From positions 453 to 64,452 of the forward strand of contig JBAQFO010000014.1 of assembly GCA_049287305.1 (NCBI GenBank): 64,000 bases of DNA, written 5' to 3'. Shown piece by piece: positions 22,554 through 64,000 of the stretch. How positions within the stretch are numbered: position 1 is the first letter of the stretch; the number at the start of each line of letters is the position of its first letter. Source of the stretch: Minisyncoccia bacterium (GTDB taxonomy: Bacteria > Patescibacteriota > Minisyncoccia > Phycocordibacterales > UBA9973). The position numbers and the translations under genes are program-made. Under the pieces are notes generated by a model that was given only the letters and a program-made list of their open reading frames with translations, was not told where the DNA came from and made no database searches.

Positions 22554-23231
22554 ATGAAAAAAAGATTATTAAAATTTGTTTCGGTGTTTTCCCTGACAGC
22601 GTTCTTTCCGCTTGTCGCCTCGGCTCAGGTTTTGGGAGATATAGTAGTTACCATCCAGGATTTTTTAAATTCAATCGTTCCAGTTCTGATTGCGCTCGGA
22701 GTGGTTTACTTCGTGTGGGGGGTGGTTCAGTTTGTCATTGGAGATAACGAAGAAGCCAAGACAAAAGGCAAGGATAGAATAATTTTTGGCCTAATCGGAT
22801 TTGCCGTCATTATCGGACTTTGGGGTTTGGTGAACATAGTGGTGAACTCTTTGGGATTTGAAGCGGGGTCGCTCTCCGCGCCCGAACTTGCGCCTATTGC
22901 AACAGCTCCGGCGGACGGAACTTGCACTATGGGAACAAATTTTCAGGGTCTTCTTGGTTTCTTTACCTGTATAATCAACAATTCTGTTATCCCTTTGATT
23001 TTCGCCATTGCAGTAGTTATGTTTATATGGGGGGCTGTTAAGTTCTTTATTATAAATTCTGACGAGGAAGCGCAGCGAGAGCAGGGAAAGCAGTTTATGA
23101 TTTGGGGGATTATAGCGCTGACTGTTATGACAGCGGTGTGGGGCCTGGTGGGGCTTCTAGGTGAAACTTTCAACATAGGGGGCAGGGTGCTTCCGCAGGT
23201 TTGCCCTCCTGGCTCAGAACAGTGTAATTAG
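22554..23231 (+). CDS. Tandem-fused double TrbC/VirB2-like pilin-family protein.
   Basis: Two consecutive pilin-like modules, each with LxSIVPVLIALGVVYFVWG ... EEAKTKGKDRIIFG ... WGLV. An internal CTMGTNF...FTC Cys pair starts the second module. 225 aa. Confidence 0.55.
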   Translation: MKKRLLKFVSVFSLTAFFPLVASAQVLGDIVVTIQDFLNSIVPVLIALGVVYFVWGVVQFVIGDNEEAKTKGKDRIIFGLIGFAVIIGLWGLVNIVVNSLGFEAGSLSAPELAPIATAPADGTCTMGTNFQGLLGFFTCIINNSVIPLIFAIAVVMFIWGAVKFFIINSDEEAQREQGKQFMIWGIIALTVMTAVWGLVGLLGETFNIGGRVLPQVCPPGSEQCN

Positions 23232-27438: not shown

Positions 27439-27520
27439 GCCCGAGTGGCGGAACTGGTATACGCGCACGACTTAAAATCGTGTCTCGCAAGGGATGTGGG
27501 TTCGATTCCCACCTCGGGCA
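27439..27520 (+). tRNA. tRNA-Leu (anticodon TAA).
   Basis: Hand-folded. Anticodon loop CTTAAAA, long variable arm, T-loop TTCGATT. Confidence 0.8.
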
Positions 27521-27548
27521 CCGGGAAGAAGTTTTTTAAAATTTATTT

Positions 27549-27621
27549 GCGCCCTTAGCTCAGCTGGTAGAGCAGATCCCTCTTAAGGATAAGGTCGAAG
27601 GTTCGATCCCTTCAGGGCGCA
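27549..27621 (+). tRNA. tRNA-Lys (anticodon CTT).
   Basis: Hand-folded. Anticodon loop CTCTTAA, T-loop TTCGATC. Confidence 0.75.
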
Positions 27622-27655
27622 CCCTGTGCGAGTAGCAATGCACATTTTAAATTTT

Positions 27656-27737
27656 GCCGGGATGGCGGAATTGGTATACGCGCTAGTCTTAGGAACTAGT
27701 GTCGCAAGACTTGAGGGTTCGAGTCCCTCTCCCGGCA
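27656..27737 (+). tRNA. tRNA-Leu (anticodon TAG).
   Basis: Hand-folded. Anticodon loop CTTAGGA, long variable arm. Confidence 0.8.
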
Positions 27738-27825
27738 CATTGGCCAAGTAGTATGAGCGTAGTGAAAGGAAGATATGACATTCCTCTGCGTGCAGGTTTA
27801 GAAAAAATTCGGTCAATATGTTTTT

Positions 27826-27897
27826 GGCCTGGTAGCCAAGTAGTAAGGCATTCCTCTGCAAAAGGAATATACGTGGGTGCGATTCCCACCCAGGCCT
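27826..27897 (+). tRNA. tRNA-Cys (anticodon GCA).
   Basis: Hand-folded. Anticodon loop CTGCAAA, discriminator T. Confidence 0.75.
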
Positions 27898-35028: not shown

Positions 35029-35111
35029 TGCGTCGGGAAGGATTCGAACCTTCGTAGCCCTAAGGCGACAGATTTACAGTCTGTTGTAATTGACCACTCT
35101 ACCACCGACGC
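35029..35111 (-). tRNA. tRNA-Tyr (anticodon GTA).
   Basis: The reverse complement folds as a class II tRNA. Anticodon loop CTGTAAA, long variable arm, T-loop TTCGAAT. Confidence 0.8.
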
Positions 35112-46311: not shown

Positions 46312-47493
46312 ATGAGGATTTTTCCTAAACCGCAAAAAGTAGATGAACTGATTGCCGTGTTTAATATTGGTTCTTCTTCCGTGGGCGGAGCTCTTTTTTT
46401 AGCTCAGAATTCTGGGGTTCCGAAAATTATTTTTTCCACAACCCAGCCATTGCTCGTGGAGGAAAAACTGAATGCGGATAAATTTCTGGCATTTACCATC
46501 TCCACGCTGGACTCGGTCGCGAAAGAGGTATTTGCTTCCGGGCTGGGCGCTCCAAAGCGTATTTTCTGCGTTTTATCTTCGCCTTGGTATGTGTCCCAGA
46601 CGCGCACTATTATTTTTAAGCAGAATACCTCGTTCTTGTTTACCGAAAAACTTGCGGACGAATTAATACAGAAAGAGATAAAAATTTTTGAAGAAGAAAA
46701 TGCCGTGAAATATCCGGGAGGCAGCAAGGATGTTCGGCCCATTGAATTAAAAAACGTGAAAACAATCTTAAACGGATACGAAGCGTCGAGCCCGCTGGGG
46801 CAGAAGGCCCAAGAACTTGAGATGGTAATGTTTGTTTCTATTGGGGGAGAACAAATGCTTTCTCGGGTAGAAGAAACTATTCGGAAGTATTTTCATTTTG
46901 AGGCAATAAAGTTTTCTTCTTTTGCTATGGCTTCTTTTACGGTTTTGCGCGACAAATATGTGAACCAGTCAAACTTTCTTTTGGTTGATATCGGAGGCGA
47001 GATGACAGATATTTTCTTGGCTAAAAAAAATGTCCTTCAGGAGTCTGTTTCTTATCCGCTTGGGGTAAACTTCTTAACGCGGAAGATTGCTACGGAATTG
47101 GGGTGCACCCTGGGAGAAGCCATTTCTCTGATATCTTTATTTAAAGACGGGCATGCGGAAAAATCAGTGGCGGAGAAGCTTGGGCTGGTATTGTCTACAA
47201 TCAAAAAAGAATGGCTTAAAAACTTCCAAGAATCTCTGGCCAATCTCTCCAAGGATATTTCTATTCCCGCTTCCATTTTTATAATTGTAGACAAAGATAT
47301 GGTTGATTTTTTTTCGGAAATTATAAAATCGGAGCAATTTAGCCAATACACTCTGACAGAATCCAAATTCGAAGTTACTTTCCTCGGCTTGCCGGCGCTT
47401 CACGACACCGCTACTTTCGAAGAAAACGTGATTCGGGAGCCGTTTCTTATAGTGGATGCTGTTTACATTAATCGCTTTTTGACTAAAATATAA
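46312..47493 (+). CDS. Actin-fold ATPase-like protein (FtsA/PilM/MreB superfamily), hypothetical.
   Basis: Phosphate-1-like FNIGSSSVGGALF and phosphate-2-like LLVDIGGEMTDIFLA. 393 aa. Confidence 0.4.
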   Translation: MRIFPKPQKVDELIAVFNIGSSSVGGALFLAQNSGVPKIIFSTTQPLLVEEKLNADKFLAFTISTLDSVAKEVFASGLGAPKRIFCVLSSPWYVSQTRTIIFKQNTSFLFTEKLADELIQKEIKIFEEENAVKYPGGSKDVRPIELKNVKTILNGYEASSPLGQKAQELEMVMFVSIGGEQMLSRVEETIRKYFHFEAIKFSSFAMASFTVLRDKYVNQSNFLLVDIGGEMTDIFLAKKNVLQESVSYPLGVNFLTRKIATELGCTLGEAISLISLFKDGHAEKSVAEKLGLVLSTIKKEWLKNFQESLANLSKDISIPASIFIIVDKDMVDFFSEIIKSEQFSQYTLTESKFEVTFLGLPALHDTATFEENVIREPFLIVDAVYINRFLTKI

Positions 47494-47495
47494 TT

Positions 47496-48833
47496 ATGGC
47501 TAAATTTTTAATGGAAGACATGGTAAAGACCAAGCGGGCCAGAAAAGAAGGCCGAGACACGAATCAAGAAATTTTACCCAAGGAAACCGTCCAAAAAAAG
47601 CCAATCATAAAGAAAGAAGTTGAATATAAAGAACCCGTCGAAAAGGTAGCATTAGTTGTCCCAAGGCATTCAAAAACAAAAAACGGCCCAAAGATTACAT
47701 TATGGCTGGTGGCCGGAATGTCTCTAGTGTTCTTTTTCTTTGCCGTGTCATTTCTTTTTTCTAGTGCCAAGATAAGTGTGAATCCGAAAACGGAGGATGT
47801 ATCCCTCAACAAGAATTTTGCCGCCAGCAAACAATCTTCTAATGGCGCTCTATTTTTTGACTTAGTTGTTATTTCCGGAGAGGAGCAATCCACAATAAAA
47901 GCTACGGGAGAAAAAGATGTTGCCGAAAAAGCAACAGGGGTGGTTGTGATATTCAACTCCTTCAGTTCATCTCCCCAGAGACTAGATGTTGATACTAGGC
48001 TGGAAGGTTCCAATGGGAAGCTATATAAAACCAAGTCGGCGGTAACTGTTCCGGGCAAAAAAACTGATGGCACAGCCGGGAAAGTGGAGGTAGGTATTTA
48101 TGGGGCTCAGGCGGGGGAGGAATATAACAGCGGACCCTTGGATTTTTACGTGGTAGGATTTAAAGGCACCCCCAAGTATGAAAAATTCAAAGTAAGAACC
48201 AAGGAGGGCACGGAAATTAAAGGTGGATTTGTCGGCAAAGCTCCAATTGTTTCCGAAACCGAAAAAGCAACGGCTTCCACGGCTCTTGAATCTGCCCTTA
48301 GGGGAAAGCTTTTGCAAAAAGCCACAGACCAGATTCCGGCCGGATTTATTTTGTTTAAAGACGCGGTTGTTCTTAACGCGGATGTGAATAACGTTAATTC
48401 TGTTTATAATAGCGACCAGAGCGTAAATTTGGTTCTAAAGGGGACCCTGTATGGAATTCTTTTTAGCGAAGAAAAATTAACCCAAAAGATAACCGAAAGT
48501 TCGGTAGAAAAATACAACGGAGAAGAAGTTTATATTCCCAACATCCGAGGTTTGAATTTTACTTTATCGGGAGGGTTGGGAGATGTGACCTTGGACACCG
48601 TTGATAATATCAGTTTTAATTTGTCAGGTGATGCTAAAATAGTATGGAAGGTGGATGAAGAGAAGTTTGCAGCGTCACTTCTCGGTAGTCAAAAGAAAGA
48701 ATTTGTTGAAATTGTTTCAAAATATGAAAACATAGATTCAGCCAATTTAAAGGTAAACCCTCCATGGAGAGATTCCATCCCGGAAAAAGAGAGCGATGTG
48801 AAGATTGAAGTGAATTATCCAAAACAGCCTTAA
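47496..48833 (+). CDS. Single-pass membrane protein with a large extracytoplasmic domain, hypothetical.
   Basis: Lys-rich cytoplasmic N-terminus, one TM (ITLWLVAGMSLVFFFFAVSFLF), 445 aa. The arrangement with the upstream actin-fold gene resembles pilM-pilN or ftsA-anchor pairs (inference only). Confidence 0.3.
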   Translation: MAKFLMEDMVKTKRARKEGRDTNQEILPKETVQKKPIIKKEVEYKEPVEKVALVVPRHSKTKNGPKITLWLVAGMSLVFFFFAVSFLFSSAKISVNPKTEDVSLNKNFAASKQSSNGALFFDLVVISGEEQSTIKATGEKDVAEKATGVVVIFNSFSSSPQRLDVDTRLEGSNGKLYKTKSAVTVPGKKTDGTAGKVEVGIYGAQAGEEYNSGPLDFYVVGFKGTPKYEKFKVRTKEGTEIKGGFVGKAPIVSETEKATASTALESALRGKLLQKATDQIPAGFILFKDAVVLNADVNNVNSVYNSDQSVNLVLKGTLYGILFSEEKLTQKITESSVEKYNGEEVYIPNIRGLNFTLSGGLGDVTLDTVDNISFNLSGDAKIVWKVDEEKFAASLLGSQKKEFVEIVSKYENIDSANLKVNPPWRDSIPEKESDVKIEVNYPKQP

Positions 48834-53114: not shown

Positions 53115-53144
53115 AAAATCCCCCTTTCAAGGGGGATTTTTTTA
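53115..53144 (+). terminator. Rho-independent terminator (AAATCCCCCTT-TCA-AGGGGGATTT plus T7).
   Basis: Seen in sequence after rpsI. Confidence 0.75.
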
Positions 53145-53159: not shown

Positions 53160-53750
53160 ATGAGCGACGAAGAAACCAAAAAAGACATTGAGAATACTGA
53201 GCCAGAAGACGACGTGGTGGAATTTGAATTTAACGAGGACGGGGAGGAAGATTTAAAGAAAACTCTAAAAAAGCTTAGGGCGGATTTGAAAGAGGTAAAA
53301 AAGGAAAAGGAAGAATATTTAACAGGCTGGCAGAAAGAGCGGGCGGAATTTGCTAATTATAGAAAACAAGAAGATGACCGCAAGGCCATGGTTTCCGAGA
53401 GCCTCAGAGAGCGTATTTTGACCAGATTTCTTACCGTGGTGGATAGCTTCAATATGGCTTTCGCCAACAAAGAAGCCTGGGAGAAAGTTGATGAGAATTG
53501 GAGGCGTGGGGTGGAATATATCTATGCCCAAATGAATACTATTTTTGAAGAATATGGAGTAAAGCCACTCGGAGTAGAAGGTGAGGACTTTGACCCTAAT
53601 GTCCATCAATCCGTAGATGTGGTAGAAACAGGCGATAAAGAACTAGAACACAAAGTGGCAACGGTCATTCAAAAAGGATACAAATTAGGAGAACGCGTTA
53701 TCCGCCCAGCAAGAGTGAATGTGTATGAATACAAAGAAACAGATAAATAA
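53160..53750 (+). CDS. grpE: Nucleotide exchange factor GrpE.
   Basis: Acidic N-terminus, a long coiled-coil helix (LKKLRADLKEVKKEKEEYL...RAEFANYRKQ) and a C-terminal beta domain. 196 aa. Confidence 0.85.
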   Translation: MSDEETKKDIENTEPEDDVVEFEFNEDGEEDLKKTLKKLRADLKEVKKEKEEYLTGWQKERAEFANYRKQEDDRKAMVSESLRERILTRFLTVVDSFNMAFANKEAWEKVDENWRRGVEYIYAQMNTIFEEYGVKPLGVEGEDFDPNVHQSVDVVETGDKELEHKVATVIQKGYKLGERVIRPARVNVYEYKETDK

Positions 53751-55512
53751 AGAAACACAAAATTTCTCTTGGTTAGATGTTCCAAAAAGTGTTTGGTATT
53801 TTCTGGACGATAGGAAAAAATTTCTGATTTCTTTTACTATTTTAATATTCGGTTTTCTTTATGAGCTTTTACCGGTATATGTAGTAGGGAAAATAGTGGA
53901 TTTTTTTACCACATATCAAAAAGGGGACTCATTGATGCGTTTTTATTTTTATATTTTATTTATTGGAGTTTCTTGGACTATAGTGTATTTGACTCGCATA
54001 CAAGTCAGGACGAATATAAACGTCATTGGACAACATGCCCGCATGAATGCTCGGGTTTGGGGGTTCCAAAGGTTAACCGAATTTTCTATTGGTTGGCATC
54101 AAAAAGAAAATACTGGAAACAAACTTCAAAGAATTTTTACAGGGTCAGACGCGATAAATGGCTGGATGAGAATCCTTAGAGCGGACCTTATAAAAATATT
54201 TGCTAACATACTGGGGGCCATGGTGTTTTTTATCTTTACTGACCTTAAATTTGCCGTAGTTGTTTTTCTGTATGCAACAATTTTTCTGTATACTGAATTC
54301 TATTTTGGAAATAAACTTTTGTTACTAAGCGATGAGTTTAATAAATTTAACCAAAAAGCTGGAGGCACCTATGTGGAATCTGCTAATAATATGTTAGCTA
54401 TAAAGGCGTTAGGAAATGAAAAGAATGCTGTGGAACGAGTGCTTGAAAAAGAAACTTATTCCAGGGATATTGCTATTCAAAAAGCTTATGTTCAAACTTC
54501 CAAATGGCGAATCTTGCATATTCTCGGGGGAATTACTTGGGTAATATTTTTGTATTTTGTCGGAAATTCTGTCATTTCCAATACAATGTCAATTGGAATG
54601 ATTGTGGTATTTTTCACTTATTTTTCTAAAGTAGGAGAAAATTTAGGGGCGACATCTTCTGCACACATGGATTTAATTGACCTCAAGTCGGACTTGGGGC
54701 AGATGATGCCGATATTTAACCAAACCGAGTTTGTGAAAACAGGAAAAGAGACTTTTCCAAAAAACTGGGATAAGATAGAGATAAAAAACGGAGTTATGGA
54801 TTACGGGTCCGGACAAAGCGGCTTAAATGATTTTAGTTTAACTTTGAGTAAAAATACGAAAACAGGAGTAGCAGGGCTGTCTGGTTCTGGCAAGTCCACT
54901 TTGGCAAAAATCATTTTAGGGTTATATGCTTTAAGGAAAGGAGAATTTAAGATAGGTAACAAGGACTATTATTCTATTTCTCACAATGAAACCCTAAGTA
55001 ATATAAGCGTGGTGCTTCAAGAAACTGAGCTGTTCAATCTTTCTTTGCGCGACAATATTACAATGATGCGAGAAGAAGACAGCAATCTTTTAGATATCGC
55101 GGTAAATATTTCTGAGTTAAAAGAAGTAATAGCTAAATTGCCTCAAGGCCTTGATTCCATGATAGGAGAGAAGGGTTATATGCTCTCCGGCGGAGAGCGC
55201 CAGCGCCTTGGCATCGCTCGGGCTATCTACAAGAGTGCGCCAATTATAATTCTGGACGAAGCTACTTCATCACTCGACTCGGAGACTGAAGGAAAAATAA
55301 TGGAAAAGCTTTTAGGAGAATATGGCAAAGATAAAACTTTCCTGATTATTGCCCATCGTTTGGGAACTCTGAAATATACCGATAATATTGTCGTAATGGG
55401 GCAAGGAAAAGTTTTGGAAGAGGGAAGTTATAATGCGCTTATGGACAACTTTGATTCTGTTTTTTATAGGATGAATAAAGAACAAAAAAATTCCAATGAA
55501 GGAGGAAACTAG
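53719..55512 (+). CDS. ABC exporter (fused TMD-NBD, type I exporter fold).
   Basis: Six N-terminal TM segments. Walker A GLSGSGKST, signature LSGGERQRLGIARA, Walker B IIILDEATSSLD. 597 aa. No C39 peptidase domain. Confidence 0.9.
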   Translation: MCMNTKKQINKETQNFSWLDVPKSVWYFLDDRKKFLISFTILIFGFLYELLPVYVVGKIVDFFTTYQKGDSLMRFYFYILFIGVSWTIVYLTRIQVRTNINVIGQHARMNARVWGFQRLTEFSIGWHQKENTGNKLQRIFTGSDAINGWMRILRADLIKIFANILGAMVFFIFTDLKFAVVVFLYATIFLYTEFYFGNKLLLLSDEFNKFNQKAGGTYVESANNMLAIKALGNEKNAVERVLEKETYSRDIAIQKAYVQTSKWRILHILGGITWVIFLYFVGNSVISNTMSIGMIVVFFTYFSKVGENLGATSSAHMDLIDLKSDLGQMMPIFNQTEFVKTGKETFPKNWDKIEIKNGVMDYGSGQSGLNDFSLTLSKNTKTGVAGLSGSGKSTLAKIILGLYALRKGEFKIGNKDYYSISHNETLSNISVVLQETELFNLSLRDNITMMREEDSNLLDIAVNISELKEVIAKLPQGLDSMIGEKGYMLSGGERQRLGIARAIYKSAPIIILDEATSSLDSETEGKIMEKLLGEYGKDKTFLIIAHRLGTLKYTDNIVVMGQGKVLEEGSYNALMDNFDSVFYRMNKEQKNSNEGGN

Positions 55513-57193
55513 ACAATGCAAAAATTGTAAAAAAGATTTCACAATAGAAAGTGATGATTTTAATTTTTACGAAAAAGTAAAGGTTCCACCCCCTACCTGG
55601 TGTCCGGAGTGCCGCCAGCTCAGGCGTTATGCCTGGCGCAACGAACGCAATTTATACAGGCGAGATTGCGACCTTTGCGGTAAAAGCACGGTAACTATTT
55701 ATTCTCCCAACAAGCCGCACAAGATGTATTGCCAGCCGTGCTGGTGGGGAGATGGCTGGGACCCCGCCTCATTTGGCCGGGATTTTGACTTTAATAGGCC
55801 ATTTTTTGAGCAATTTTCGGAGCTACAGCTGGAAGTGCCTAGGATGGCGCTTCTCAGTAAAAACAGCGTTAATTCCGAGTATACGAACCATTCCGGAGAT
55901 AATAAAAATGTCTACCTTTCGTTTGCTTGCTGGGGAGCTGAAAATATCCTTTACAGCACCTGGGTTATGAAATCTCGAGACTGCATGGACTGTAGCTTTG
56001 TTTACGAAAAAGGGGAACGACTATATGAATGTTTGGACACTAGGACTTCTTACGAATGCCAGTTCGGAACTTTCTTGAAAGACTGCTCTTCTTGTTTTTA
56101 TTGTTATGACTGCAGAGGATGTAATCACTGCTTCATGTCTTCTAATTTAAGAAACAAGAGCTATGTTTTTAAGAATGAGCAATATACCCGCGAAGAATAC
56201 CTGGAAAAGATAAAAGAATACGAATTGTCTTCCGCTATCATCCGAGAAGGATTATTGAAAGAATTTCAGGAATTGGTTCAGCATAACTCCGTTCATAGGT
56301 ATATCATCAGCGAAAGAAACGTGAACTCTGTCGGCTCCCTGATATTTGACTGCAAGAATGTAAAAGAATCTTTTGAGGTAAATAATGCCGAAGACTGCAA
56401 ATATATTTATGGAGCTTTGGATATTAAAGATTCCATGGATGTTTACCATGCCGGCTGGCCGACTACCGCCCTTAATTATGAATGCCATGGATGCACGCGA
56501 ATATATGATTGTAAATTTTGCCACCTCTGTTATGACAACAACAGCGTCTCGTATTCCGATAGCTGTCAAAACAGCCAGAACCTTTTTGGATGTGTCAGCA
56601 TTAAAAAAGGGGAGTTCATGATTTTTAACAAAAAATATTTGAAAGCAGACTATCTGGTGCTTAAGGAAAAAATAATTGAATACATGAAGAAAACCGCGGA
56701 ATATGGCGAGTTTTTTCCGCCGGAAATGGCTCCGATTTATTTCAACGAAACCCAGGGAAATTTGTATGCGCCAATGTCCAAAGAGGAAGTTCTGGCAAAA
56801 GGATGGCACTGGGAAGAAAATATTCCCGGAACTTTTGGAAAAGAAACGGTAAAAATTTCCGCCCTGCCTGATAAAATTGAAGATGTTTCGGATGCATATC
56901 TCAATGAAATCTTCGCCTGCTCGGCGTGTTCAAAAAATTACAACTTAACTTTAAACGAGTTTTTGTTTTACAAGAAGGAGAAAATACCCTTCCCGAGAAA
57001 GTGTCCCAATTGCCGATACAAAAGAAGATTTGATTTGAGGCCCCTCCGCAAGCTGTGGCATCGCTCCTGTATGTGTGATAGCAAGGACCATGGTCACGGA
57101 GAAGTTTGTTCAAACGAATTTAAAACTCCGTATGCGCCAAACCGAATAGAGAAGATATATTGTGAAAGCTGTTACAATAAAGAAGTATATTAA
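55496..57193 (+). CDS. Cys-rich multi-zinc-ribbon protein of an unrecognised family (paralog 1).
   Basis: 565 aa with about 38 Cys. N-terminal double ribbon CKNCKK...FYEK..VPPPTWCPECR...CDLCGK...YCQPCWWGDGWDP. Central CSSCFYCYDCRGCNHC cluster. A homologous C-terminal double ribbon CSACSKNY...FYKK..IPFPRKCPNCR...CMCD...YCESCYNKEVY. It overlaps the ABC gene end by 17 nt and has no SD, so it is translationally coupled. Confidence 0.6.
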   Translation: MKEETRQCKNCKKDFTIESDDFNFYEKVKVPPPTWCPECRQLRRYAWRNERNLYRRDCDLCGKSTVTIYSPNKPHKMYCQPCWWGDGWDPASFGRDFDFNRPFFEQFSELQLEVPRMALLSKNSVNSEYTNHSGDNKNVYLSFACWGAENILYSTWVMKSRDCMDCSFVYEKGERLYECLDTRTSYECQFGTFLKDCSSCFYCYDCRGCNHCFMSSNLRNKSYVFKNEQYTREEYLEKIKEYELSSAIIREGLLKEFQELVQHNSVHRYIISERNVNSVGSLIFDCKNVKESFEVNNAEDCKYIYGALDIKDSMDVYHAGWPTTALNYECHGCTRIYDCKFCHLCYDNNSVSYSDSCQNSQNLFGCVSIKKGEFMIFNKKYLKADYLVLKEKIIEYMKKTAEYGEFFPPEMAPIYFNETQGNLYAPMSKEEVLAKGWHWEENIPGTFGKETVKISALPDKIEDVSDAYLNEIFACSACSKNYNLTLNEFLFYKKEKIPFPRKCPNCRYKRRFDLRPLRKLWHRSCMCDSKDHGHGEVCSNEFKTPYAPNRIEKIYCESCYNKEVY

Positions 57194-57195
57194 CG

Positions 57196-58884
57196 ATGGA
57201 AACAAGAAATTGCCAAAACTGCAAAAAAGATTTCACCATAAAGAGTGAAGATTTTAATTTTTATGAAAAAATAAAAGTCCCGCCGCCGACTTGGTGTCCG
57301 GAATGCAGACTGCAGCGTAGGTATGCGTGGCGCAACGAACGCACCTTATATAGGCGAAATTGTGATTTGTGCGGAAAAAGCATGGTTACTTTCTATTCTC
57401 CCAATAAGCCGCATAAAGTATATTGCATACAATGTTGGTGGGGGGACGGCTGGGACCCTTCTTCTTTTGGCAGAGATTTTGATTTTTCCCGACCATTTTT
57501 TGAGCAGTTTAGAGAACTTCAGCTGAATGTTCCCAGAATTGCTGTTTTTAACAAAAATAATATTAATTCCGATTATACAAACCACTCAGGAGACAACAAA
57601 AATACCTACCTTTCTTCCTGTTGTTTTTACGACGAGGATGTTTTGTACTCGAATTGGATTATGAAATCACGGAATTGTGTTGATAATACCTATATTTCCG
57701 ATAGTGGCGAAAAGTTGTATCAATGTGTTGACTCGCGGAAGTCCTATCAATGTCAATATGGAGTTTTGCTGGAAAATTGCATGAATTGCTTTTATTGTTA
57801 TGATTGCCATAACTGCAGTGACTGTTTTTTGTCTTCAAATTTACGAAATAAAAGATATGTTTTTAAAAATCAGCAATATACTCGTGAACAGTATTTAGAA
57901 AAGGTAAAAGAATATAATCTAAGTTCATATCAAACCCGCGAAAAGTTAAATCAAGAATTCTTTGACCTGCGAATGAATGATTCTATCCACCGATATGTTA
58001 TAAGTGAACGCAATACAAACTGCACCGGTAGTATGATCCTTAGTAGTAAAAACGCAATAAATTGTTTTGACGTCGATTCTATTGAAGATTCGAAATATGT
58101 TTTTTCCGCCACAGGGTTAAAATCATCAATGGACCTATATCACATAGGCTGGAATTCGGAACTCGCATATGAGCTGCACGGAGGACAAGGCTATTATAAT
58201 TGTAAGTTTTGCCACCATGGCTGGGATAATACAAATATTACCTACTGCGATTCATGTCAAAATTGTCAGGAAATTTTTGGTTGCATCTCAGTAAAAAAAG
58301 GGGAGTATATGATTTTTAATAAAAAATATAGTAAAGAAGATTACTTTTCTTTAAAAGAAAAAATAATTGAACATATGAAAAAGACAGGAGAGTATGGTGA
58401 ATATTTTCCACCTTCTATCTCCCCAATTTGTTACAACGAAAGTATGGGGAATTACTATATGCCCGAAACCAAGGAAAGTATCGCTGATCGCGGCTGGCAG
58501 TGGGAGGAAAAAATTCCAGGAATATTTGGGAAAGAAACAATACAGCTTGAAGACGTCCCCGACTCAATTAAAGAAGTAGGAGATGATATTCTTGCGGCAG
58601 TATTTAGGTGTGTTAGCTGTAGTAAAAATTATAACATTGTTCCAAACGAACTTACTTTTTATAGAAAAGAAGAAATCCCTACACCGCGTAAATGTCCCGA
58701 ATGTAGATACAAAGATCGTTTTATTATTCGTTTGCCTCGCAGGGTTTGGCACAGAGACTGTATGTGTGAGAAGACACAACACGGTCATGAAAATAAATGT
58801 CCAAATGAATTTGAAACATCATATTCTTCTGATAGAAAGGAAAAGATTTATTGCGAAAGTTGTTACAATAAAGAAGTCTACTAA
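57196..58884 (+). CDS. Cys-rich multi-zinc-ribbon protein (paralog 2, about 55-60% aa identity to paralog 1).
   Basis: 562 aa. Same motif order, ending ...YCESCYNKEVY. Its ATG lies 3 nt after paralog 1's stop. Nucleotide identity to paralog 1 is about 75-80% over the N-terminus. Confidence 0.6.
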   Translation: METRNCQNCKKDFTIKSEDFNFYEKIKVPPPTWCPECRLQRRYAWRNERTLYRRNCDLCGKSMVTFYSPNKPHKVYCIQCWWGDGWDPSSFGRDFDFSRPFFEQFRELQLNVPRIAVFNKNNINSDYTNHSGDNKNTYLSSCCFYDEDVLYSNWIMKSRNCVDNTYISDSGEKLYQCVDSRKSYQCQYGVLLENCMNCFYCYDCHNCSDCFLSSNLRNKRYVFKNQQYTREQYLEKVKEYNLSSYQTREKLNQEFFDLRMNDSIHRYVISERNTNCTGSMILSSKNAINCFDVDSIEDSKYVFSATGLKSSMDLYHIGWNSELAYELHGGQGYYNCKFCHHGWDNTNITYCDSCQNCQEIFGCISVKKGEYMIFNKKYSKEDYFSLKEKIIEHMKKTGEYGEYFPPSISPICYNESMGNYYMPETKESIADRGWQWEEKIPGIFGKETIQLEDVPDSIKEVGDDILAAVFRCVSCSKNYNIVPNELTFYRKEEIPTPRKCPECRYKDRFIIRLPRRVWHRDCMCEKTQHGHENKCPNEFETSYSSDRKEKIYCESCYNKEVY

Positions 58885-58885
58885 A

Positions 58886-58930
58886 AACTATTCTGGTATT
58901 CTCAAGAATACCAGAATAGTTCTATTTTCC
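58886..58930. terminator. Bidirectional terminator: perfect 14-bp palindrome CTATTCTGGTATTC-TCAA-GAATACCAGAATAG.
   Basis: Seen in sequence between convergent genes. Confidence 0.75.
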
Positions 58931-59455
58931 GAAAGTTTCAAATAAAACTTTTTTACTTTCTTCGTCTATGTTTTCGGTGACGATTATCATCATCTCAGTC
59001 GTCAGGCTCAAGTCTTTTTTAATATTCTTAAAAAGATGTTCATAAGGAAAAGGGGATATCCAGGCGGAATTTTTTAAGCACACAAATCCCGCTTTTTTCA
59101 GAAGATAACGTAAAGATTCCCGTTCTTTTTTTCTGCTCTCGGGCAAATCAAGTAAAATTATTCTCCAAAGCCCGTCCCAGGAAGTATTGACCAAGGTGGT
59201 GCCGCTTTCCAGCTCCAAGGTATGCACCTTTTTTTTACCGAGATTTGTTAAGCGGGCATATTCATTCTGGGGGGAGGAAACTTGCTCCACTAAACCGGCT
59301 TCTTTTAGCCCTTTTAGAGAACGAGTAATAGCGTATTTATAACCAGGAGGGCAATCCCCATTTACTATTTTTGTCGTAATTTCAGGGACTGAGGTGGCTG
59401 TTTTTCCGCTTAAAATCTTCAATATTTTATTAGAATAGTCCGTTTTTCTTGACAT
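58922..59455 (-). CDS. Winged-helix regulator-like protein with a PaaX-like C-terminal region.
   Basis: N-terminal wHTH-like region (ITRSLKGLKEAGLVEQV). WDGLWRIILLDLPE...R..LRYLLKKAGFVCLKNSAWISPFP resembles the PaaX-family core. 177 aa. Confidence 0.35.
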   Translation of the reverse strand: MSRKTDYSNKILKILSGKTATSVPEITTKIVNGDCPPGYKYAITRSLKGLKEAGLVEQVSSPQNEYARLTNLGKKKVHTLELESGTTLVNTSWDGLWRIILLDLPESRKKERESLRYLLKKAGFVCLKNSAWISPFPYEHLFKNIKKDLSLTTEMMIIVTENIDEESKKVLFETFGK

Positions 59456-59603
59456 GTCTATATATTATAATATATATTGTCTTTTGACAAGCATTTCGTG
59501 ACCACGAAAAACTTGCAAAATAAAATAGGCTCGTATATAATGGTTTTATCAATTAATTATTAACCCCGATTATCGGTTCGGGATTTAAATTCAATAAAAC
59601 AAC

Positions 59604-61520
59604 ATGAGTAAAATAATAGGTATAGACTTAGGGACAACAAATTCAGCGGTAGCTATCATTGAAGGTGGCGTGCCAAAGATAATTGAGAACGCGGAGGGTA
59701 ATCGCACCACGCCTTCGGTTGTTTCTGTTGCTAAAAATGGAGACAGACTTGTAGGACTTTTAGCCAAAAGACAGGCGGTTACTAATCCCGAAAATACAAT
59801 TTACGGAATCAAGCGCTTCATGGGGCATAATTTTGAAGACCCGGAAGTTCAGAAAGATTTAAAGAACGCTTCTTTTAAAATCCAGAAATCCGCAAATGGC
59901 GGAGTAGAAGTAATGATTGGAGACAAGTGGATGCGACCCGAAGAAATTTCAGCGATGATTCTTTCCAAAATAAAGACGGACGTGGAAGCAAAGCTCGGAG
60001 AGAAGATTACCGAAGCGGTTATTACCGTGCCTGCTTACTTTAACGATGCCCAGAGAAAGGCTACCAAAGATGCCGGAATGATTGCCGGACTGGACGTAAA
60101 GCGCATAATTAACGAACCTACCGCTGCCGCTCTTGCCTATGGTTTCAATAAAAAGAAAAATGAAAAAATCGTGGTGTATGACTTTGGGGGAGGAACATTT
60201 GACGTATCGGTCCTTGAGATTGGGGACGATGTTATAGAGGTGAAGTCCACGGATGGCGATAGCCACTTGGGAGGACGAGACATTGACCATAAAATAATCG
60301 GATGGATTGCCGAAGAGTTTAAAAAGAATTCCGGAGTTGATGTGCGTAGCGATAAATTGGCGTTACAGCGCCTGGACGAAGCAGCCGAAAAAGCAAAAAT
60401 AGAGCTTTCTACCGCGATTGAAACTGAAATCAACATACCATTTATCACTTCTACCGCGGAAGGCCCTCAACATTTGCTTCTAAAAATGACTCGTGCCCAG
60501 CTTGAGTCAATTGCTGACGAATATATAGCCCGCTCCATAGAGATTACCAAGAGAGCTATGACAGCCTCCGGGTTCAAAATGGAAGATATGCACGAAATAG
60601 TAATGGTTGGAGGACAGACCAGAATGCCAAAGATTGTAGAAGAGGTTAAAAAAGTTTTTGGTAAAACCCCAAACCTTACAATCAACCCTGACGAAGTTGT
60701 GGCGTTGGGGGCGGCGGTTCAGGCCGGAGTGCTTCAGGGGGACGTCCGAGATGTGTTGCTTCTCGATGTTATTCCTCTTTCTCTTGGTATTGAAACTTTG
60801 GGAGGTGTGGCTACCAAATTGATTGAAAGAAACACTACGATTCCTTCAAATAAGTCTCAGGTATTTTCTACGGCAGCCGACAACCAAACTTCTGTGGAAA
60901 TACATATAGTCCAAGGAGAGCGTCCAATGGCTTCCGACAACAAATCTTTGGGTAGGTTTATCTTGGACGGAGTTCCGCCTGCGCCTAGGGGAATGCCTCA
61001 AATAGAAGTTGCTTTTGACGTGGATGCGAATGGAATACTGAACGTTACGGCAAAAGATAAAGCTTCAGGGAAAACTCAATCTATAAAAATTGAAGCAAGT
61101 TCAGGACTTAAAGAAGAAGATATAAAGAAGATGCAGGCTGACGCCGAGCTCCACGCGGAGGAGGACAAGAAGAAAAAAGAAGTGGTGGATATAAAGAATA
61201 CAGCCGAAATGATAATCTATACGGCCGAAAAAGCGCTGAAAGACAACGAGGCGAAAATCCCTGTGGAACTAAAGGATGAAGTAAATAAAAAAATTGCCGC
61301 TGTTCGAGAAGTTAAGGATGGCACCGACGGTGAGGCAATAAAGAAGACTACGGAAGAACTTTCCGCTGAAATGTCAAAGATTGGAGAAGCGGTAGCGAAA
61401 GCAGGAGGTGATGCCGGAACCAATCCGGGCACCACGGCTCCCGAAGAACAGCCGGCTGAAGTAAAGGATGCGGAGTTTAAAGAGAAAAAAGAAGAGGAAG
61501 ACAGTGAGCCAAAAGAGTAA
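59604..61520 (+). CDS. dnaK: Molecular chaperone DnaK (Hsp70).
   Basis: [23 protein letters not shown] and the EEVD-less acidic C-terminus. 638 aa. Confidence 0.97.
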
Positions 61521-61590: not shown

Positions 61591-63906
61591 ATGGAACTTC
61601 CGGAGATACCCGTAAATAAGGATATTACTTATTTGGGACTTACGACGTATCGGGACAAAAACCAACTTTTCGGCATAAAGCGCAAAGACAGGCGTCAGCA
61701 TGTTTATATTCTCGGTAAATCTGGAACGGGTAAATCCGTGCTGATGTTCAACATGATTATCCAGAACATCCAGAATGGCGAAGGAGTCTGTTTGGTTGAC
61801 CCGCACGGAGAAAACGTAGAAGCAATACTATCAGCTATACCAAGGCATCGCCTGAAAGATGTGATTTATTTTAATCCCGCAGATGCGGATTACCACATAG
61901 GCTTTAATGTCCTAGAGCTAATAGACCCACAATACAAGCATTTGGTGGCTTCAGGGCTTATGGGTATATTCACCAAAATTTGGGCGAACGCATGGAGCGC
62001 CCGAATGGAATATATTTTAAATAATACAATTTTAGCTCTACTCGACACGCCGGGAACGACCCTGCTTGGAATTCCAAGAATGCTCGTAGACAAAGATTAT
62101 CGACAAAAGATAATTTCTAATTTGAAAGACCCTGTTATTAAGGCTTTTTGGGTTCACGAATACGAAGCTTGGCAGGATAAGTTTAGAAACGAGGCAATCG
62201 CTCCGATTCAAAACAAAGTGGGGCAGTTTCTTTCAACGTCCATCATAAGAAATGTTGTGGGACAGGCGAAAAGCACTATCAATATTTTCGACATGATGAA
62301 CGAAGGAAAAATTTTCCTAGTAAACGTTTCCAAGGGACGCATCGGAGAAGACAACTCATCTCTTCTCGGAGGAATGATAATTACGAAGATTCAGCTGGCT
62401 GCCATGGAGCGCGTGCGTATTCCCGAAGAGCATCGTCGAGACTTCTATCTGTATGTGGACGAGTTCCAGAACTTCGTTACGGATGCTTTCGCGGGAATAC
62501 TTTCGGAAGCTAGAAAATACCGACTAAACTTAACTGTGGCCCACCAATACACGGCTCAGCTTGTTTCGGATAAAAGCACGGCTGTCCGTGACGCGGTGTT
62601 CGGCAACGTCGGAACTATAATTGTTTTTCGAGTGGGAGCCGACGATGCTGATTTTTTAGAAAAAGAATTTGAGCCGGAATTTACTCCTCAAGATATAGTC
62701 AACCTGCCAAACTACAAGGTTTACATGAAGTTGATGATAGACGGAGTTACCTCGCGCGGTTTTTCCGCTAAAACTCTTCCTCAGATGGTCAAAGGAGGGG
62801 ATAGGGAAATAGAGGAAGAAGTAATTAAATCCTCCCGTGAGCTTTATTGCAGGTCCAAAGAAGAAGTGGAGAGGGAAATAAATAATTGGAGCGGAATGTC
62901 CTTGGGGGAAAACGATTCTGGTGGAGGAAGCCAAGGGATGAGCATGGGAAGCTCAGGAGGGAGTAGTGGATATGGTGGCAGTGGCAACAGCGGAAGCGGA
63001 GGAAGCTTGGAAAAATTTGTAATAAATTGTTCTCTCTGTAAGCAGGAGAAAACCGTTCCTTTCAAACCTGAACCAGGACGGCCGGTCTACTGCAAAGAGT
63101 GTATTGCTAAAATAAAATCCGGGGAAGTAAAAGTAGAGAAGGGCTCTGAAAATCAAATAAAATACGATGACTCTAAATTTTTCAAACCACTAGCAGACCT
63201 GGGTATAGAATTTTATCCAAAAGAAGGCAAGGTCAAAGAGCAAGACCGGCACCCTGAAAGAGTAGATCCTCCACATACTTTAACAGGCAAGCCTGCTGTA
63301 GCTAGACCAGTTGACACTACGCCTCCTCCACCAAAACATAGAATCGTGGATGCGGTCAAAAAAGTATTTTCTCCCAATCCGCAAATGCCTGGCAAAGATA
63401 AAATAAAATCGCCCTATCCTCCTCAACCGCCGACACAAACTTCCATCCCGAGAAGCGAAAATCGAGCCCTAAAAGAAGTTTTAAATAAGGTCTTAGAAGA
63501 GACTCCTTCTCCGCAAGCTCCTGCTCCTGTAGCAGCACCCATGCCTACCCCGGAGCCAATTTCTCTGGATTCTTTAAAGGATAAAATAAAAGCTACGTCT
63601 ATGAGTGGGCAAACTAGGGAAGTAAAAAATGACCGAGCGGCAACGCAGGAAGAAATGGATAAGCTAAAAAATTTGATTACCGCAACCTCTACGGCTCCCA
63701 AGGAAACCGTGCCTACGCAAGAAGTTCCTCCTGCTCCGACTCCTCAACCCATCATAGCCCAAGCGTCTGTAGCTGAAACACCTGTTCCTCAAGCACCTGC
63801 ATCATCATCTGCTCCGATACCACAAAAACCTGCAAAAGCTTCGCCCGTGGATGGGCTACAGCCGAGGGAGGTGCCGGAGGACGTGCTTAGGAAAATTTTA
63901 GAGTAA
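61591..63906 (+). CDS. VirD4/TraG/TraD-like type IV coupling-protein ATPase, with a long Gly/Ser then Pro/Ala/Gln-rich low-complexity tail and an embedded C-terminal zinc ribbon.
   Basis: Walker A ILGKSGTGKS, Walker B FYLYVDEFQNF, and a TraG-D_C-like VVFRVGADDADFLEKEF. Ribbon CSLCKQEKTVPFKPEPGRPVYCKECIAKIK. 771 aa. Confidence 0.65.
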   Translation: MELPEIPVNKDITYLGLTTYRDKNQLFGIKRKDRRQHVYILGKSGTGKSVLMFNMIIQNIQNGEGVCLVDPHGENVEAILSAIPRHRLKDVIYFNPADADYHIGFNVLELIDPQYKHLVASGLMGIFTKIWANAWSARMEYILNNTILALLDTPGTTLLGIPRMLVDKDYRQKIISNLKDPVIKAFWVHEYEAWQDKFRNEAIAPIQNKVGQFLSTSIIRNVVGQAKSTINIFDMMNEGKIFLVNVSKGRIGEDNSSLLGGMIITKIQLAAMERVRIPEEHRRDFYLYVDEFQNFVTDAFAGILSEARKYRLNLTVAHQYTAQLVSDKSTAVRDAVFGNVGTIIVFRVGADDADFLEKEFEPEFTPQDIVNLPNYKVYMKLMIDGVTSRGFSAKTLPQMVKGGDREIEEEVIKSSRELYCRSKEEVEREINNWSGMSLGENDSGGGSQGMSMGSSGGSSGYGGSGNSGSGGSLEKFVINCSLCKQEKTVPFKPEPGRPVYCKECIAKIKSGEVKVEKGSENQIKYDDSKFFKPLADLGIEFYPKEGKVKEQDRHPERVDPPHTLTGKPAVARPVDTTPPPPKHRIVDAVKKVFSPNPQMPGKDKIKSPYPPQPPTQTSIPRSENRALKEVLNKVLEETPSPQAPAPVAAPMPTPEPISLDSLKDKIKATSMSGQTREVKNDRAATQEEMDKLKNLITATSTAPKETVPTQEVPPAPTPQPIIAQASVAETPVPQAPASSSAPIPQKPAKASPVDGLQPREVPEDVLRKILE

Positions 63907-63930: not shown

Positions 63931-64000
63931 GTGGAATATAAAGCAGAAAAACAGACATGTCAGAATTGCAAAAAAGATTTCGTAATAGAACCGGAAGATT
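63931..64000 (+). CDS. 5' end of a third Cys-rich multi-zinc-ribbon paralog (partial; runs off the window).
   Basis: GTG start at 63931. It translates (V)EYKAEKQTCQNCKKDFVIEPED, matching the N-termini of the paralogs at 55496 and 57196. Confidence 0.5.
   Translation, partial: MEYKAEKQTCQNCKKDFVIEPED

Follow-up and report, generated by a model that had tools for sequence, protein, structure and literature searches.

Zinc ribbons of the zf_Tbcl (PF13451) and zf_Tbcl_2 (PF23477; NCBIfam TIGR04272, CxxC-x17-CxxC) classes are known as a tandem from stand-alone 'putative zinc-ribbon domain' proteins of ~90 aa, and the CxxC-x17-CxxC domain of M. mazei small proteins binds Zn, as measured by ICP-MS (PMC12704099). 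Narrow beta-solenoids are known from the Tenebrio molitor antifreeze protein (TmAFP; PDB 1EZG), the spruce budworm AFP, the ryegrass IBP and curli CsgA. In crystal structures of another solenoid family, core Cys residues are stacked without disulfides (PMC13123833). Here we describe a locus that brings ribbons of this kind together with predicted solenoids. It lies in the window, by which we mean the whole 64,000-nt stretch of DNA analyzed, and encodes two tandem Cys-rich proteins, Cys1 and Cys2.

The Cys1/Cys2 family is very large and undescribed, and has so far been seen only in Patescibacteria, mostly Parcubacteria/Paceibacteria lineages; we found no description of it in the literature. An earlier, sequence-only reading of the window had called the family unrecognised. 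This is true of its ~400-aa core, which no Pfam, NCBIfam, PADLOC or PHROG model matches, and not of its ribbons, which are divergent zf_Tbcl + zf_Tbcl_2 pairs. No solved structural homologue of the Cys-rich proteins was found.

Gene organization of the locus

The genes and boundaries of the locus are as follows.

53121..53135, + strand: hairpin terminator-like site after rpsI and just 5' of grpE, a perfect 14-nt inverted repeat; 5' boundary of the unit
53160..53750, + strand: grpE, first gene of the apparent operon, overlapping the ABC start (PF01025 in orthologous loci)
53719..55512, + strand: ABC exporter, MsbA/HlyB-like, half-size, with a 6-TM domain and NBD; alternative start at 53725
55496..57193, + strand: Cys1, orthogroup C0 subtype a, 565 aa with 37 Cys; four zinc ribbons and two modeled beta-solenoid modules
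57196..58884, + strand: Cys2, orthogroup C0 subtype b, 562 aa with 37 Cys
58886..58921, + strand: strong 16-bp hairpin terminator directly 3' of Cys2, serving both it and the convergent paaX-like gene
58922..59455, - strand: PaaX_M (Cas2-like)/winged-helix putative regulator, kept between arrays and dnaK in 29 loci
59604..61520, + strand: dnaK, preceded by promoter-like sites of its own
61591..63906, + strand: VirD4/TraD/HerA-like P-loop ATPase, soluble, with a Gly/Ser linker and Pro-rich tail and without a TM anchor
63016-63111 (aa 476-507), + strand: bona fide, single zf_Tbcl_2 ribbon of the VirD4-like ATPase
63931..64000, + strand: third family paralog, start only, in the conserved post-VirD4 position; the window end cuts the gene

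The ABC, Cys1 and Cys2 genes had been proposed to form an operon. Their tight packing is as claimed: at the coordinates first given, Cys1 and the ABC gene share 17 nt, no purine-rich SD sequence precedes Cys1 within 15 nt, and the Cys2 start lies 3 nt beyond the end of the Cys1 stop codon. The proposed extent of three genes needs correction, as grpE also belongs to the unit. Hairpin terminators at both ends bracket grpE-ABC-Cys1-Cys2, which we therefore read as a four-gene unit. The third paralog does begin right after the VirD4-like gene, with a GTG start at 63931 and the N-terminal sequence VEYKAEKQTCQNCKKDFVIEPED...

Cys1 and Cys2 had been credited with about 38 Cys in ~565 aa, and the exact count is 37 in each. 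By comparison, GrpE, DnaK, the ABC exporter and the PaaX-like protein have 0-2 Cys and the 771-aa VirD4-like protein has 6; the median Cys content is 6.1% in the family and 0.68% in neighboring proteins. The two proteins are 63% identical. Because Cys2 resembles the lone C0 gene of another sub-clade more closely (73% identity, loci L051 and L058), we reject the idea that it is a fresh tandem duplicate of Cys1.

Domain architecture of the Cys-rich proteins

Family architecture is constant, at ~550-600 aa, and is laid out in Cys1 as follows.

55496..55750 (aa 1-85), + strand: N-terminal ribbon pair, a divergent zf_Tbcl and then a zf_Tbcl_2-like ribbon
55835..56182 (aa 114-229), + strand: solenoid module A, 12-residue coils with a Cys/Ser core ladder; holds the sixfold CxxC run (C197-C212)
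56288..56638 (aa 265-381), + strand: solenoid module B, homologue of module A (hhalign E=2e-37)
56891..57190 (aa 466-565), + strand: C-terminal ribbon pair, homologue of the N-terminal pair with an extra C527/H532/H534 insert

No signal peptide was found, as the sequence-only reading had stated, and TM segments are also absent; family proteins are predicted to be soluble and cytoplasmic. WWGDGWDP and GEFFP...YNET mark conserved regions in these proteins.

In the N-terminal pair of Cys1, the zf_Tbcl cysteines are C8, C11, C36 and C39, accompanied by a basic helix, and those of the zf_Tbcl_2-like ribbon are C58, C61, C79 and C82. The suspected homology of the two terminal double ribbons was borne out (hhalign E=9e-29), and both pairs are basic, with a pI of about 9. 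The ribbons of the window proteins fall below Pfam gathering thresholds (16-20 bits vs 24-27). A stand-alone canonical zf_Tbcl+zf_Tbcl_2 protein reaches 88.7 and 72 bits to those domains, and the N- and C-terminal ribbon profiles of the family align with it end to end (E=7e-20 and 9e-17). Ribbon Cys are kept or lost in sets of four, as zinc sites are, giving four all-or-none Cys4 sites. In ZnR2, for instance, four Cys are present in 223 sequences, 0-1 in 127, 2 in 2 and 3 in none, so that all four occur together at a frequency of 0.63 vs 0.22 expected if they were independent. Whole Cys sets are lost from ribbon 2 in ~37% and from ribbon 3 in ~23% of members. We infer four structural Zn ions per protein, held by about 16 of the 37 Cys.

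Between the ribbon pairs, modeling places two very narrow beta-solenoids with a core of interchangeable Cys, Ser, Val and Leu (AF2 pLDDT 92, pTM 0.92; DSSP period 12). Spacings between core Cys are nearly all multiples of 3, with 6 the least favored among those up to 12. Core Cys give way to Ser, Val or Leu, chiefly Ser (39%), and their joint frequencies stay close to the expectation for independence (0.57 vs 0.51; 0.68 vs 0.66; 0.07 vs 0.06); they are not pairwise coupled, and Cys counts show no preference for even numbers. The central run of six CxxC-spaced Cys pointed out earlier is present in Cys1 and Cys2, but it is not a conserved motif, as Cys occupies its positions in only about 30-90% of the family. 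Every-third-residue spacing, Ser/Val/Leu replacement and independent occurrence together identify this run as part of the core ladder. We considered it as a metal cluster and rejected this, since ladder residues vary independently, unlike ribbon sites. The remaining ~20 Cys, which face inward, probably serve as reduced core packing. Packing alone does not explain the sustained choice of Cys, ~nine-fold above background, over cheaper small residues.

Paralog arrays and their neighborhoods

Across 80 family loci, with ABC genes counted within 10 kb, the paralog expansion suspected in the window was confirmed: family genes form arrays of 1 to 11 copies per locus, all co-oriented (244/244) and with a median gap of 44 nt. 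The paralogs are ancient, positionally conserved orthogroups, with a median within-locus identity of 38% and the conserved order GrpE-C2-C0-(C5/C1/C3/C6)-PaaX-DnaK-VirD4-(C4/C1). C0 orthologues are 51-83% identical across lineages, the same degree of conservation as GrpE, and within C0 the outward solenoid residues are conserved equally to the inward ones. Roughly one third of family loci are without ABC, VirD4-like, grpE or dnaK genes.

The family is indeed linked to the ABC exporter (ABC_membrane 74 bits, ABC_tran 96.8 bits), though only in part. Of ~17 loci informative for the ABC orthogroup, 13 have it immediately next to a family gene; its place among the genes differs, with at least five slots used. 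Other lineages (L047, L057, L079) have more distant ABCs beside their family genes. Adjacency is non-random (8 of 10 loci vs a background of 0.19), which upholds the coupling, but not as a dedicated three-part system of exporter, VirD4-like protein and family: ABC is present in only 10/80 loci and the VirD4-like gene in 29/80.

The 771-aa VirD4-like protein matches the TrwB_AAD_bind/T4SS-DNA_transf P-loop domain above threshold; among PHROGs, a family of unknown function matches it best. It had been said to end in a ribbon related to those of the family. What it shares is the generic CxxC-x17-CxxC class only (zf_Tbcl_2, 41.6 bits), not a family-specific ribbon; the family ribbon HMM does not detect the VirD4-like protein of the window and matches three others at iE 0.01-0.02.

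Possible functions of the family

From architecture and conservation only, we tentatively favor, with somewhat less than even confidence, a cytoplasmic, zinc-stapled rigid binding scaffold. All paralogs would dock through their ribbon pairs and caps, either on a polyanion (nucleic acid, for example) or on a partner that they have in common. Each would take its specificity from its solenoid faces, which are kept within an orthogroup and divergent between paralogs, and co-transcribed paralogs may form hetero-complexes. The ABC exporter would be a frequent yet dispensable operon partner rather than an obligatory component.

It is possible, though unlikely, that the ABC exporter instead secretes the Cys-rich proteins by a type-I-like, signal-peptide-free route, and that they are variable surface or adhesion proteins of an episymbiont, with solenoid Cys disulfide-bonded outside the cell as in TmAFP. 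This would account for the adjacency of ABC orthologues and of more distant ABCs to family genes, for a closest fold that is a secreted, disulfide-stapled 12-residue beta-helix, and for a Trx-DsbB pair that one clade has close to its family genes in about 8 loci. It is at odds with the scarcity of ABC among family loci, with an exporter in which no C39 peptidase or CLD domain was found, and with a C-terminus unlike a loose secretion signal, being a structured, basic zinc ribbon that is highly conserved. Disulfide bonding fares no better: the total Cys is odd in Cys1 and Cys2 and even in only 45% of members, core Cys are uncoupled, and the TmAFP disulfide spacing is the disfavored 6. The same ribbon class also occurs in the cytoplasmic VirD4-like ATPase.

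A role in proteostasis, as zinc-dependent co-chaperones, holdases or clients of GrpE-DnaK comparable to the Cys/Zn modules of DnaJ or Hsp33, also strikes us as improbable. The grpE gene lies directly 5' of a family gene in 32/80 loci, overlapping in 19, and shares one terminator-bounded unit with the family in the window; dnaK lies downstream in 27 loci. This linkage may, however, reflect lineage-level synteny near a ribosomal-protein cluster, and distant lineages (e.g., L069-L086) keep arrays without nearby grpE or dnaK. Family proteins lack a J domain, the CxxCxGxG repeat and Hsp33 similarity, DnaJ is encoded separately in some loci, and no CIRCE operator was found.

The inward-facing Cys and their best conserved set, C197-x8-C206-x2-C209-x2-C212, could also suggest cores that store or buffer metal (metallothionein-/Csp-like) or hold Fe-S, with the ABC as an Atm1/CydDC-type metal-thiol exporter. 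We give this little credence, because core Cys are individually dispensable and co-occur only as independence predicts, unlike those of the ribbons. CydC and CydD are among the NCBIfam matches of the ABC, but these matches are unspecific and score well short of every equivalog cut-off; CutA1 adjoins family genes in several loci, but the Trx-DsbB-CutA1 block is confined to one clade.

That the paralogs are effectors or adaptors bound by a T4SS-type coupling ATPase through a common ribbon is very doubtful. In its favor, 17 loci have a VirD4-like gene immediately 5' of a family gene (among them the grpE/dnaK-free L069, L073 and L076-L079), arrays often end in a second VirD4-like paralog, the ATPase has its true zf_Tbcl_2 domain and a T4SS-pilin-domain gene lies in the window (22554-23231). 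Against it, that gene is about 38 kb away with no other T4SS gene near the ATPase, which has no TM anchor (max KD 1.13), has a ribbon barely detected by the family HMM and is missing from 51/80 loci. C0 is conserved like GrpE, unlike typical effectors, and zinc-stapled rigid proteins would be poor translocation substrates.

The scaffold reading has its own difficulties. The ABC adjacency and the Trx-DsbB-CutA1 block would be easier to explain by export or by thiol/metal handling than by a scaffold confined to the cytoplasm, and the variation in copy number is awkward for a fixed hetero-complex.

Comparison with known systems

Left-handed beta-helix acyltransferases (LpxD, LpxA, GlmU, gamma-carbonic anhydrase) differ from the modeled core in their 18-residue triangular coils, trimeric active sites and hexapeptide motifs. 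An identity as a hexapeptide-repeat acyltransferase was rejected, with TM-scores of about 0.1 and no Pfam Hexapep match; the resemblance is that of solenoids in general. Like VirD4/TraD coupling proteins, the neighboring ATPase has a TrwB_AAD_bind/T4SS-DNA_transf domain; unlike them, it is soluble and lacks N-terminal TM helices, has a zinc ribbon as well as a long Pro-rich tail, and keeps a conserved place beside dnaK without other T4SS genes. As in type I secretion (HlyB/HlyA) and in bacteriocin/NHLP export, a half-size, exporter-fold ABC gene is tightly packed, sometimes overlapping, with a gene for putative cargo that lacks a Sec signal. Those pairs differ in having C39/CLD domains, a membrane-fusion partner, RTX repeats or a leader peptide, whereas the putative cargo here ends in a conserved Zn ribbon and most family genes have no ABC neighbor. 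A further likeness is to the zf_Tbcl+zf_Tbcl_2 tandem, as family ribbons likewise consist of CxxC...CxxCR with a basic helix and then CxxC-x17-CxxC; unlike the stand-alone proteins, the family carries this tandem twice, at either end of a ~400-aa predicted solenoid core.

Locus and transcription unit

The ORF map confirms the spacing first read from sequence: the ABC exporter gene and Cys1, the first of two adjacent Cys-rich genes, overlap by 17 nt, Cys2 starts 3 nt past the last base of the Cys1 stop codon, and a third copy begins at 63931. The sequence-only reading had taken ABC, Cys1 and Cys2 for a three-gene operon. Their tight packing stands, but grpE overlaps the ABC start and hairpin terminators bound the group on both sides, so that the apparent transcription unit is grpE-ABC-Cys1-Cys2.

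Features of the transcription unit and the third copy
53121-53135, hairpin terminator
53160-53750, grpE, overlapping the ABC start
53719-55512, ABC gene
55496-57193, Cys1 (565 aa, 37 Cys)
57196-58884, Cys2 (562 aa, 37 Cys)
58886-58921, hairpin terminator with a 16-bp stem, immediately 3' of Cys2
63931 (GTG start), third family ORF, which reads VEYKAEKQTCQNCKKDFVIEPED and runs past the window end

Cys1 and Cys2 are 63% identical, and in BLAST the N-terminal ribbon region also aligns with the C-terminal ribbon region. Both are as Cys-rich as first described, with 37 cysteines each rather than about 38. Cysteine content is 6.1% in the family versus 0.68% in neighboring proteins, a roughly nine-fold difference; GrpE and DnaK contain none, ABC one, the PaaX-like putative regulator two and the VirD4-like ATPase (771 aa) six. 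As expected from the sequence-only reading, no signal peptide was found in family proteins, nor any transmembrane (TM) segment.

The dnaK gene has promoter-like sites of its own, and no CIRCE/HrcA operator was found in the window. An 18-nt imperfect palindrome (TTTGACAAGCATTTCGTG / CACGAAAAACTTGCAAAA; 59483-59520) lies over promoter-like hexamers in the divergent paaX-like/dnaK intergenic region, and in this CIRCE-free setting the PaaX_M/winged-helix regulator may use it as an operator.

Extent of the family

A search of 5.8 billion proteins returned 4,816 relatives. The best 120 of these are 68-100% identical, and the named ones among them are all annotated 'hypothetical protein' and come from Patescibacteria, among them Nomurabacteria and Minisyncoccia. 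With clustering at 50% identity, the representatives of 4,327 clusters match at E<=1e-3 and those of 1,850 at E<=1e-30, and among the matches listed nearly all are full length (540-600 aa). The central ~400 residues of Cys1 and Cys2 have no Pfam or NCBIfam match, PDB sequence searches with single sequence and profile gave nothing significant, and we found no description of the family in the literature, including CPR protein-family surveys. The initial view of the family as unrecognized thus holds for its core but not for its ribbons, which proved to be divergent zf_Tbcl and zf_Tbcl_2 domains.

Plasmids were not matched, IMG/VR scanned with the close alignment yielded no relatives, and deposited phages were matched through the ribbon part only, in a single hit. 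Anti-phage defense and phage readings were dropped because PADLOC and PHROGs returned 0 families for Cys1 and Cys2.

Terminal zinc ribbons

Both termini have only sub-threshold Pfam and NCBIfam matches, to zf_Tbcl and zf_Tbcl_2 (CxxC-x17-CxxC). Cys1 and Cys2 score 16.4 and 15.4 bits against zf_Tbcl (PF13451; gathering cut-off 24) and 19.7 and 17.6 bits against zf_Tbcl_2 (PF23477; cut-off 27), while NCBIfam TIGR04272 gives 16.1 and 12.9 bits (cut-off 36). A few family members do exceed a Pfam cut-off in precomputed hits (P0041, P0065, P0099, P0114 and P0118). Profile-profile comparison bears out the claimed homology of the two terminal double ribbons (E=9e-29). The single phage-collection hit is a stand-alone 93-aa protein, a canonical zf_Tbcl (88.7 bits) and zf_Tbcl_2 (72 bits) tandem in locus L113, from an unverified human-faecal phage contig (MT837064.1). 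The family's N- and C-terminal ribbon HMMs align with this tandem end to end (57.8 and 47.7 bits, E=7e-20 and 9e-17), which identifies the terminal modules as divergent members of the recognized pair. Directly upstream of the 93-aa protein (region 1817-2776) is an ORF that by eye looks sigma-70-like, which may place the ribbon pair in a transcription-related setting. Small CxxC-x17-CxxC proteins of M. mazei bind zinc by ICP-MS (PMC12704099).

We scored the joint retention of cysteines in a 352-sequence family alignment. All four are present in 0.95 of members in the first ribbon (ZnR1) and in 0.97 in the last (ZnR4). In ZnR2, 223 sequences have four cysteines, 127 have none or one, two have two and none has three; the all-four frequency is 0.63, versus 0.22 expected if the positions were independent, and in ZnR3 it is 0.77 versus 0.50. 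By this alignment ribbon cysteines are kept all or none, and the four of each ribbon behave as one metal site. The last ribbon of ~59% of members has an insert in which C527, H532 and H534 co-occur (CMCDSKDHGHGEVC in Cys1, aa 525-534, window 57068-57097), and which could be an additional Cys/His metal site. In locus L003, the GrpE-adjacent paralog (orthogroup C2, 6300-7961) has lost its ribbon 2 cysteines (..SDLSGESLITVLPQNSRYPIYKSHEWWGDGWDP) and retains the WWGDGWDP cap motif.

A cysteine-ladder core

Residues ~113-243 are homologous to ~264-393 by profile-profile comparison (E=2e-37), so that the family has two internal duplications, the terminal double ribbons and the core halves. An AlphaFold model from 34 close orthologues (pLDDT 56, core unfolded) was set aside; with 150 diverse cluster representatives pLDDT was 92 and pTM 0.92. 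The latter model predicts, in order, a ribbon pair, short helices, solenoid A, a long helix, solenoid B, a helical cap and a ribbon pair, and in it the DSSP pattern EEEE--E--E-- recurs every 12 residues, at 198, 210 and 222. Within residues 100-400 of 150 diverse members, nearly all Cys-Cys spacings are multiples of three, at 3 (1154), 6 (767), 9 (1133) and 12 (1051), with 39 at spacing 1 and 25 at 2. Such multiples of three are what a 12-residue coil with every third residue facing inward predicts.

The core cysteines behave differently from those of the ribbons. In the 352-sequence alignment each core ladder position holds Cys in 13-86% of members, and the replacements are Ser (39%), Val (13%) and Leu (12%), as well as Thr, Ile and Ala. 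Joint presence is 0.57 for C197/206/209/212 versus 0.51 expected if independent, 0.68 versus 0.66 for the core CxxCxxC and 0.07 versus 0.06 for the mid-core set, and the maximum column phi is 0.59. Cysteine number is even in the core of 53% of members and in total in 45%, showing no even preference. From all-or-none ribbon cysteines, independent core cysteines and the lack of an even preference, we infer that ~16 cysteines would form four Zn-type sites and ~20 would pack the core. These joint-retention statistics cleanly separate true zinc-site from packing cysteines.

The CxxC x6 run in the window proteins, initially described as a central cluster, is an extreme case of the core ladder. Conservation and independence statistics led us to reject a metal cluster, as cysteines at these positions are independent and swapped for Ser, Val or Leu. 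Core packing alone does not explain the roughly nine-fold preference for cysteine. Solenoid cores with stacked, non-bonded cysteines have crystallographic precedent (PMC13123833); the 'Knotted Solenoid' fold of the same work belongs to Brevundimonas pentapeptide-like proteins and is unrelated.

Arrays of ancient paralogs

The 80 species-representative loci contain 244 family genes, from 1 to 11 in each; all are co-oriented, and the gap between them has a median of 44 nt. Clustering at 50% identity gave 36 orthogroups (C0, C1 and so on), and gene order in the Nomurabacteria-like clade is GrpE-C2-C0-(C5/C1/C3/C6)-PaaX(-)-DnaK-VirD4-(C4/C1). The paralog expansion first proposed is real in extent, but same-locus paralogs have a median identity of 38% and are, judged by their divergence, ancient rather than recent. 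Between Nomura-, Staskawicz-, Jorgensen-, Harrison- and Liptonbacteria, C0 orthologues keep 51-83% identity, comparable to GrpE, and on their solenoids the outward positions are no less conserved than the inward positions. Over the family as a whole, divergence is greatest in the solenoids and the helix between them and least in the ribbons and caps.

Cys1 and Cys2 both belong to C0, and among the loci compared only the window has two C0 genes; its ABC gene takes the slot normally held by C2. Cys1 is 81% identical to L007 and L008. Cys2 as a recent tandem duplicate of Cys1 was rejected because the lone C0 gene of L051 and L058, in another sub-clade, resembles it more (73% identity) than Cys1 does. 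In L074 (JANBVK010000001.1, 621 kb), eleven family genes of eleven orthogroups fill 22 kb (1-22057), and the array may extend past the fetched flanks.

A family of cytoplasmic, zinc-stapled, rigid scaffolds fits the facts best, a real possibility that we favor tentatively. Under the mechanism we infer, the ribbons and caps that the paralogs have in common would serve for docking to a common partner or polyanion, each paralog would owe its specificity to its own solenoid faces, and co-transcribed paralogs might form hetero-complexes.

Gene neighborhoods and alternative readings

Unbiased clustering of 1,266 flanking ORFs from the 80 family loci gave the following census. MgtC was dismissed as a recurrent neighbor, being ~11 genes away.

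Recurrent neighbors of family genes
rpoA/ribosomal cluster, ~35 loci
GrpE, 33 loci
PaaX-like, 29 loci
VirD4-like, 29 loci
DnaK, 27 loci
ABC, 10 loci

Of the 10 loci with ABC, 8 have it next to a family gene, where the background rate is 0.19 (binomial P=5e-5, for loci that are not phylogenetically independent). From ABC orthologues in metagenomes, a family gene is directly adjacent in 13 of ~17 informative loci and in at least 5 different slots; one further locus has a family gene 1.5 kb off and three have none. In the converse direction, ABC occurs in only 10 of the 80 family loci. The ABC orthogroup is thus usually found inside family arrays, whereas most arrays lack ABC, and the exporter coupling seen in the window is partial. 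This adjacency favors a reading in which ABC exports the Cys proteins, which are then disulfide-bonded, but the many arrays without ABC and the lack of an even cysteine preference make it unlikely.

A proteostasis role linked to GrpE-DnaK would fit the recurrence of both genes, and in 19 of 32 cases grpE and the family gene after it overlap. Family genes also occur in lineages without grpE/dnaK, and we give this role a similarly low probability.

Metal or thiol handling is more doubtful still. In one clade (~8 loci: L026, L030, L040, L049, L054, L056, L064 and L067) we observed a conserved order of membrane-anchored thioredoxin, DsbB, (family gene), CutA1 and family gene, and nothing else hints at a setting of extracytoplasmic thiols or metals for these proteins; against metal handling, joint presence of the core cysteines is near independence in all three sets.

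Coupling to the VirD4-like ATPase is just as improbable. Its gene lies directly 5' of a family gene in 17 loci, including the lineages without grpE/dnaK, but the ATPase lacks a membrane anchor, the family ribbon HMM barely detects its ribbon, and the sole T4SS_pilin-domain gene in the window is ~38 kb away. The domain sharing with a T4SS-type ATPase that had been read from sequence goes no further than a generic ribbon class. VirD4-like and ABC genes recur in part of the 80 loci, and other T4SS genes appear in none of their flanks. A second, shorter VirD4-like paralog (ATPase domain only), ~45% identical to residues 4-430 of the window protein, occurs just 3' of arrays in L088-L093, L099, L107, L112, L023, L025 and L037 (e.g. 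L090 9715-11007), so that many arrays are flanked by two VirD4-like ATPase genes.

Other features of the window

3927-3999 (+), single tRNA
22554-23231 (+), protein with two T4SS_pilin (PF18895) domains
24201-25250 (-), 349-aa Gly/Ala-rich membrane protein of no further annotation, in a block of anomalously high GC (0.567 versus ~0.41) that follows the pilin-domain gene
27439-27897 (+), four tRNA genes within 460 bp
35029-35111 (-), single tRNA
46312-47493 (+), conserved 393-aa protein
47496-48833 (+), conserved 445-aa protein, with one hydrophobic N-terminal segment by eye

The T4SS_pilin gene and the high-GC block may be an acquired or conjugation-like surface module. The genes for the 393- and 445-aa proteins lie 5' of the infA/rpsM cluster, and 23-27 related loci have them too; Pfam has no family for the former, nor for the L061 orthologue of the latter.

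Significance

Beyond the scaffold reading that we favor, the co-transcribed ancient paralogs might form a Patescibacteria-specific hetero-oligomeric machine, a zinc-ribbon/solenoid scaffold acting with soluble VirD4/HerA-like ring ATPases and, in some lineages, a dedicated ABC, as part of a new multi-component system. We regard this as a long shot; if true, ultra-small symbiotic bacteria would have a new kind of system that handles or exports nucleic acid or protein from cytoplasm to envelope. The non-random but partial linkage to one ABC orthogroup and to soluble VirD4-like ATPases provides testable leads. Patescibacteria genomes are tiny, and some spend ~20 kb on this family, with up to 11 ancient paralogs per array. 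A large, conserved, Cys-rich family without model, structural homologue or literature is a target for the biology of uncultivated episymbionts.

Comparison with known systems

The building blocks, treble-clef/zinc-ribbon domains and a narrow beta-solenoid, are already known; what is undescribed is the domain combination, the scale and antiquity of the paralogs, and a Cys-ladder core in a protein that lacks a signal peptide. Like T1SS/bacteriocin exporters, the window ABC has an exporter-fold TMD and NBD (ABC_membrane 74 bits, ABC_tran 96.8 bits), with 32 hydrophobic windows and a TMD from ~aa 36; no C39 peptidase or C39-like Pfam domain was found at its N-terminus. Cargo of those exporters has a leader or a C-terminal RTX-type signal, whereas family proteins start and end in conserved zinc ribbons. 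The VirD4-like protein shares the P-loop of VirD4/TraD coupling proteins and matches PF10412 (40.6 bits, cut-off 20.5) and PF02534 (32 bits, cut-off 20.1), but they have an N-terminal membrane anchor and it has no TM window (maximum Kyte-Doolittle 1.13, 19-residue window). Metallothioneins, Csp and Fe-S proteins would be expected to co-retain core ligand sets, unlike the family core. DnaJ and Hsp33 are marked by a J domain, CxxCxGxG repeats or the Hsp33 fold, none of which was found in the family by Pfam/NCBIfam (E<=1) or structural search.

TmAFP-type beta-solenoids are secreted and have obligate intra-coil disulfides between cysteines paired at a spacing of 6, whereas the family has neither an even cysteine preference nor a signal peptide or TM segment. 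What the family core shares with them is the 12-residue coil in which every third residue is small and faces inward, a natural example of a Cys-ladder fold otherwise known from insect antifreeze proteins, here in an apparently cytoplasmic bacterial setting.
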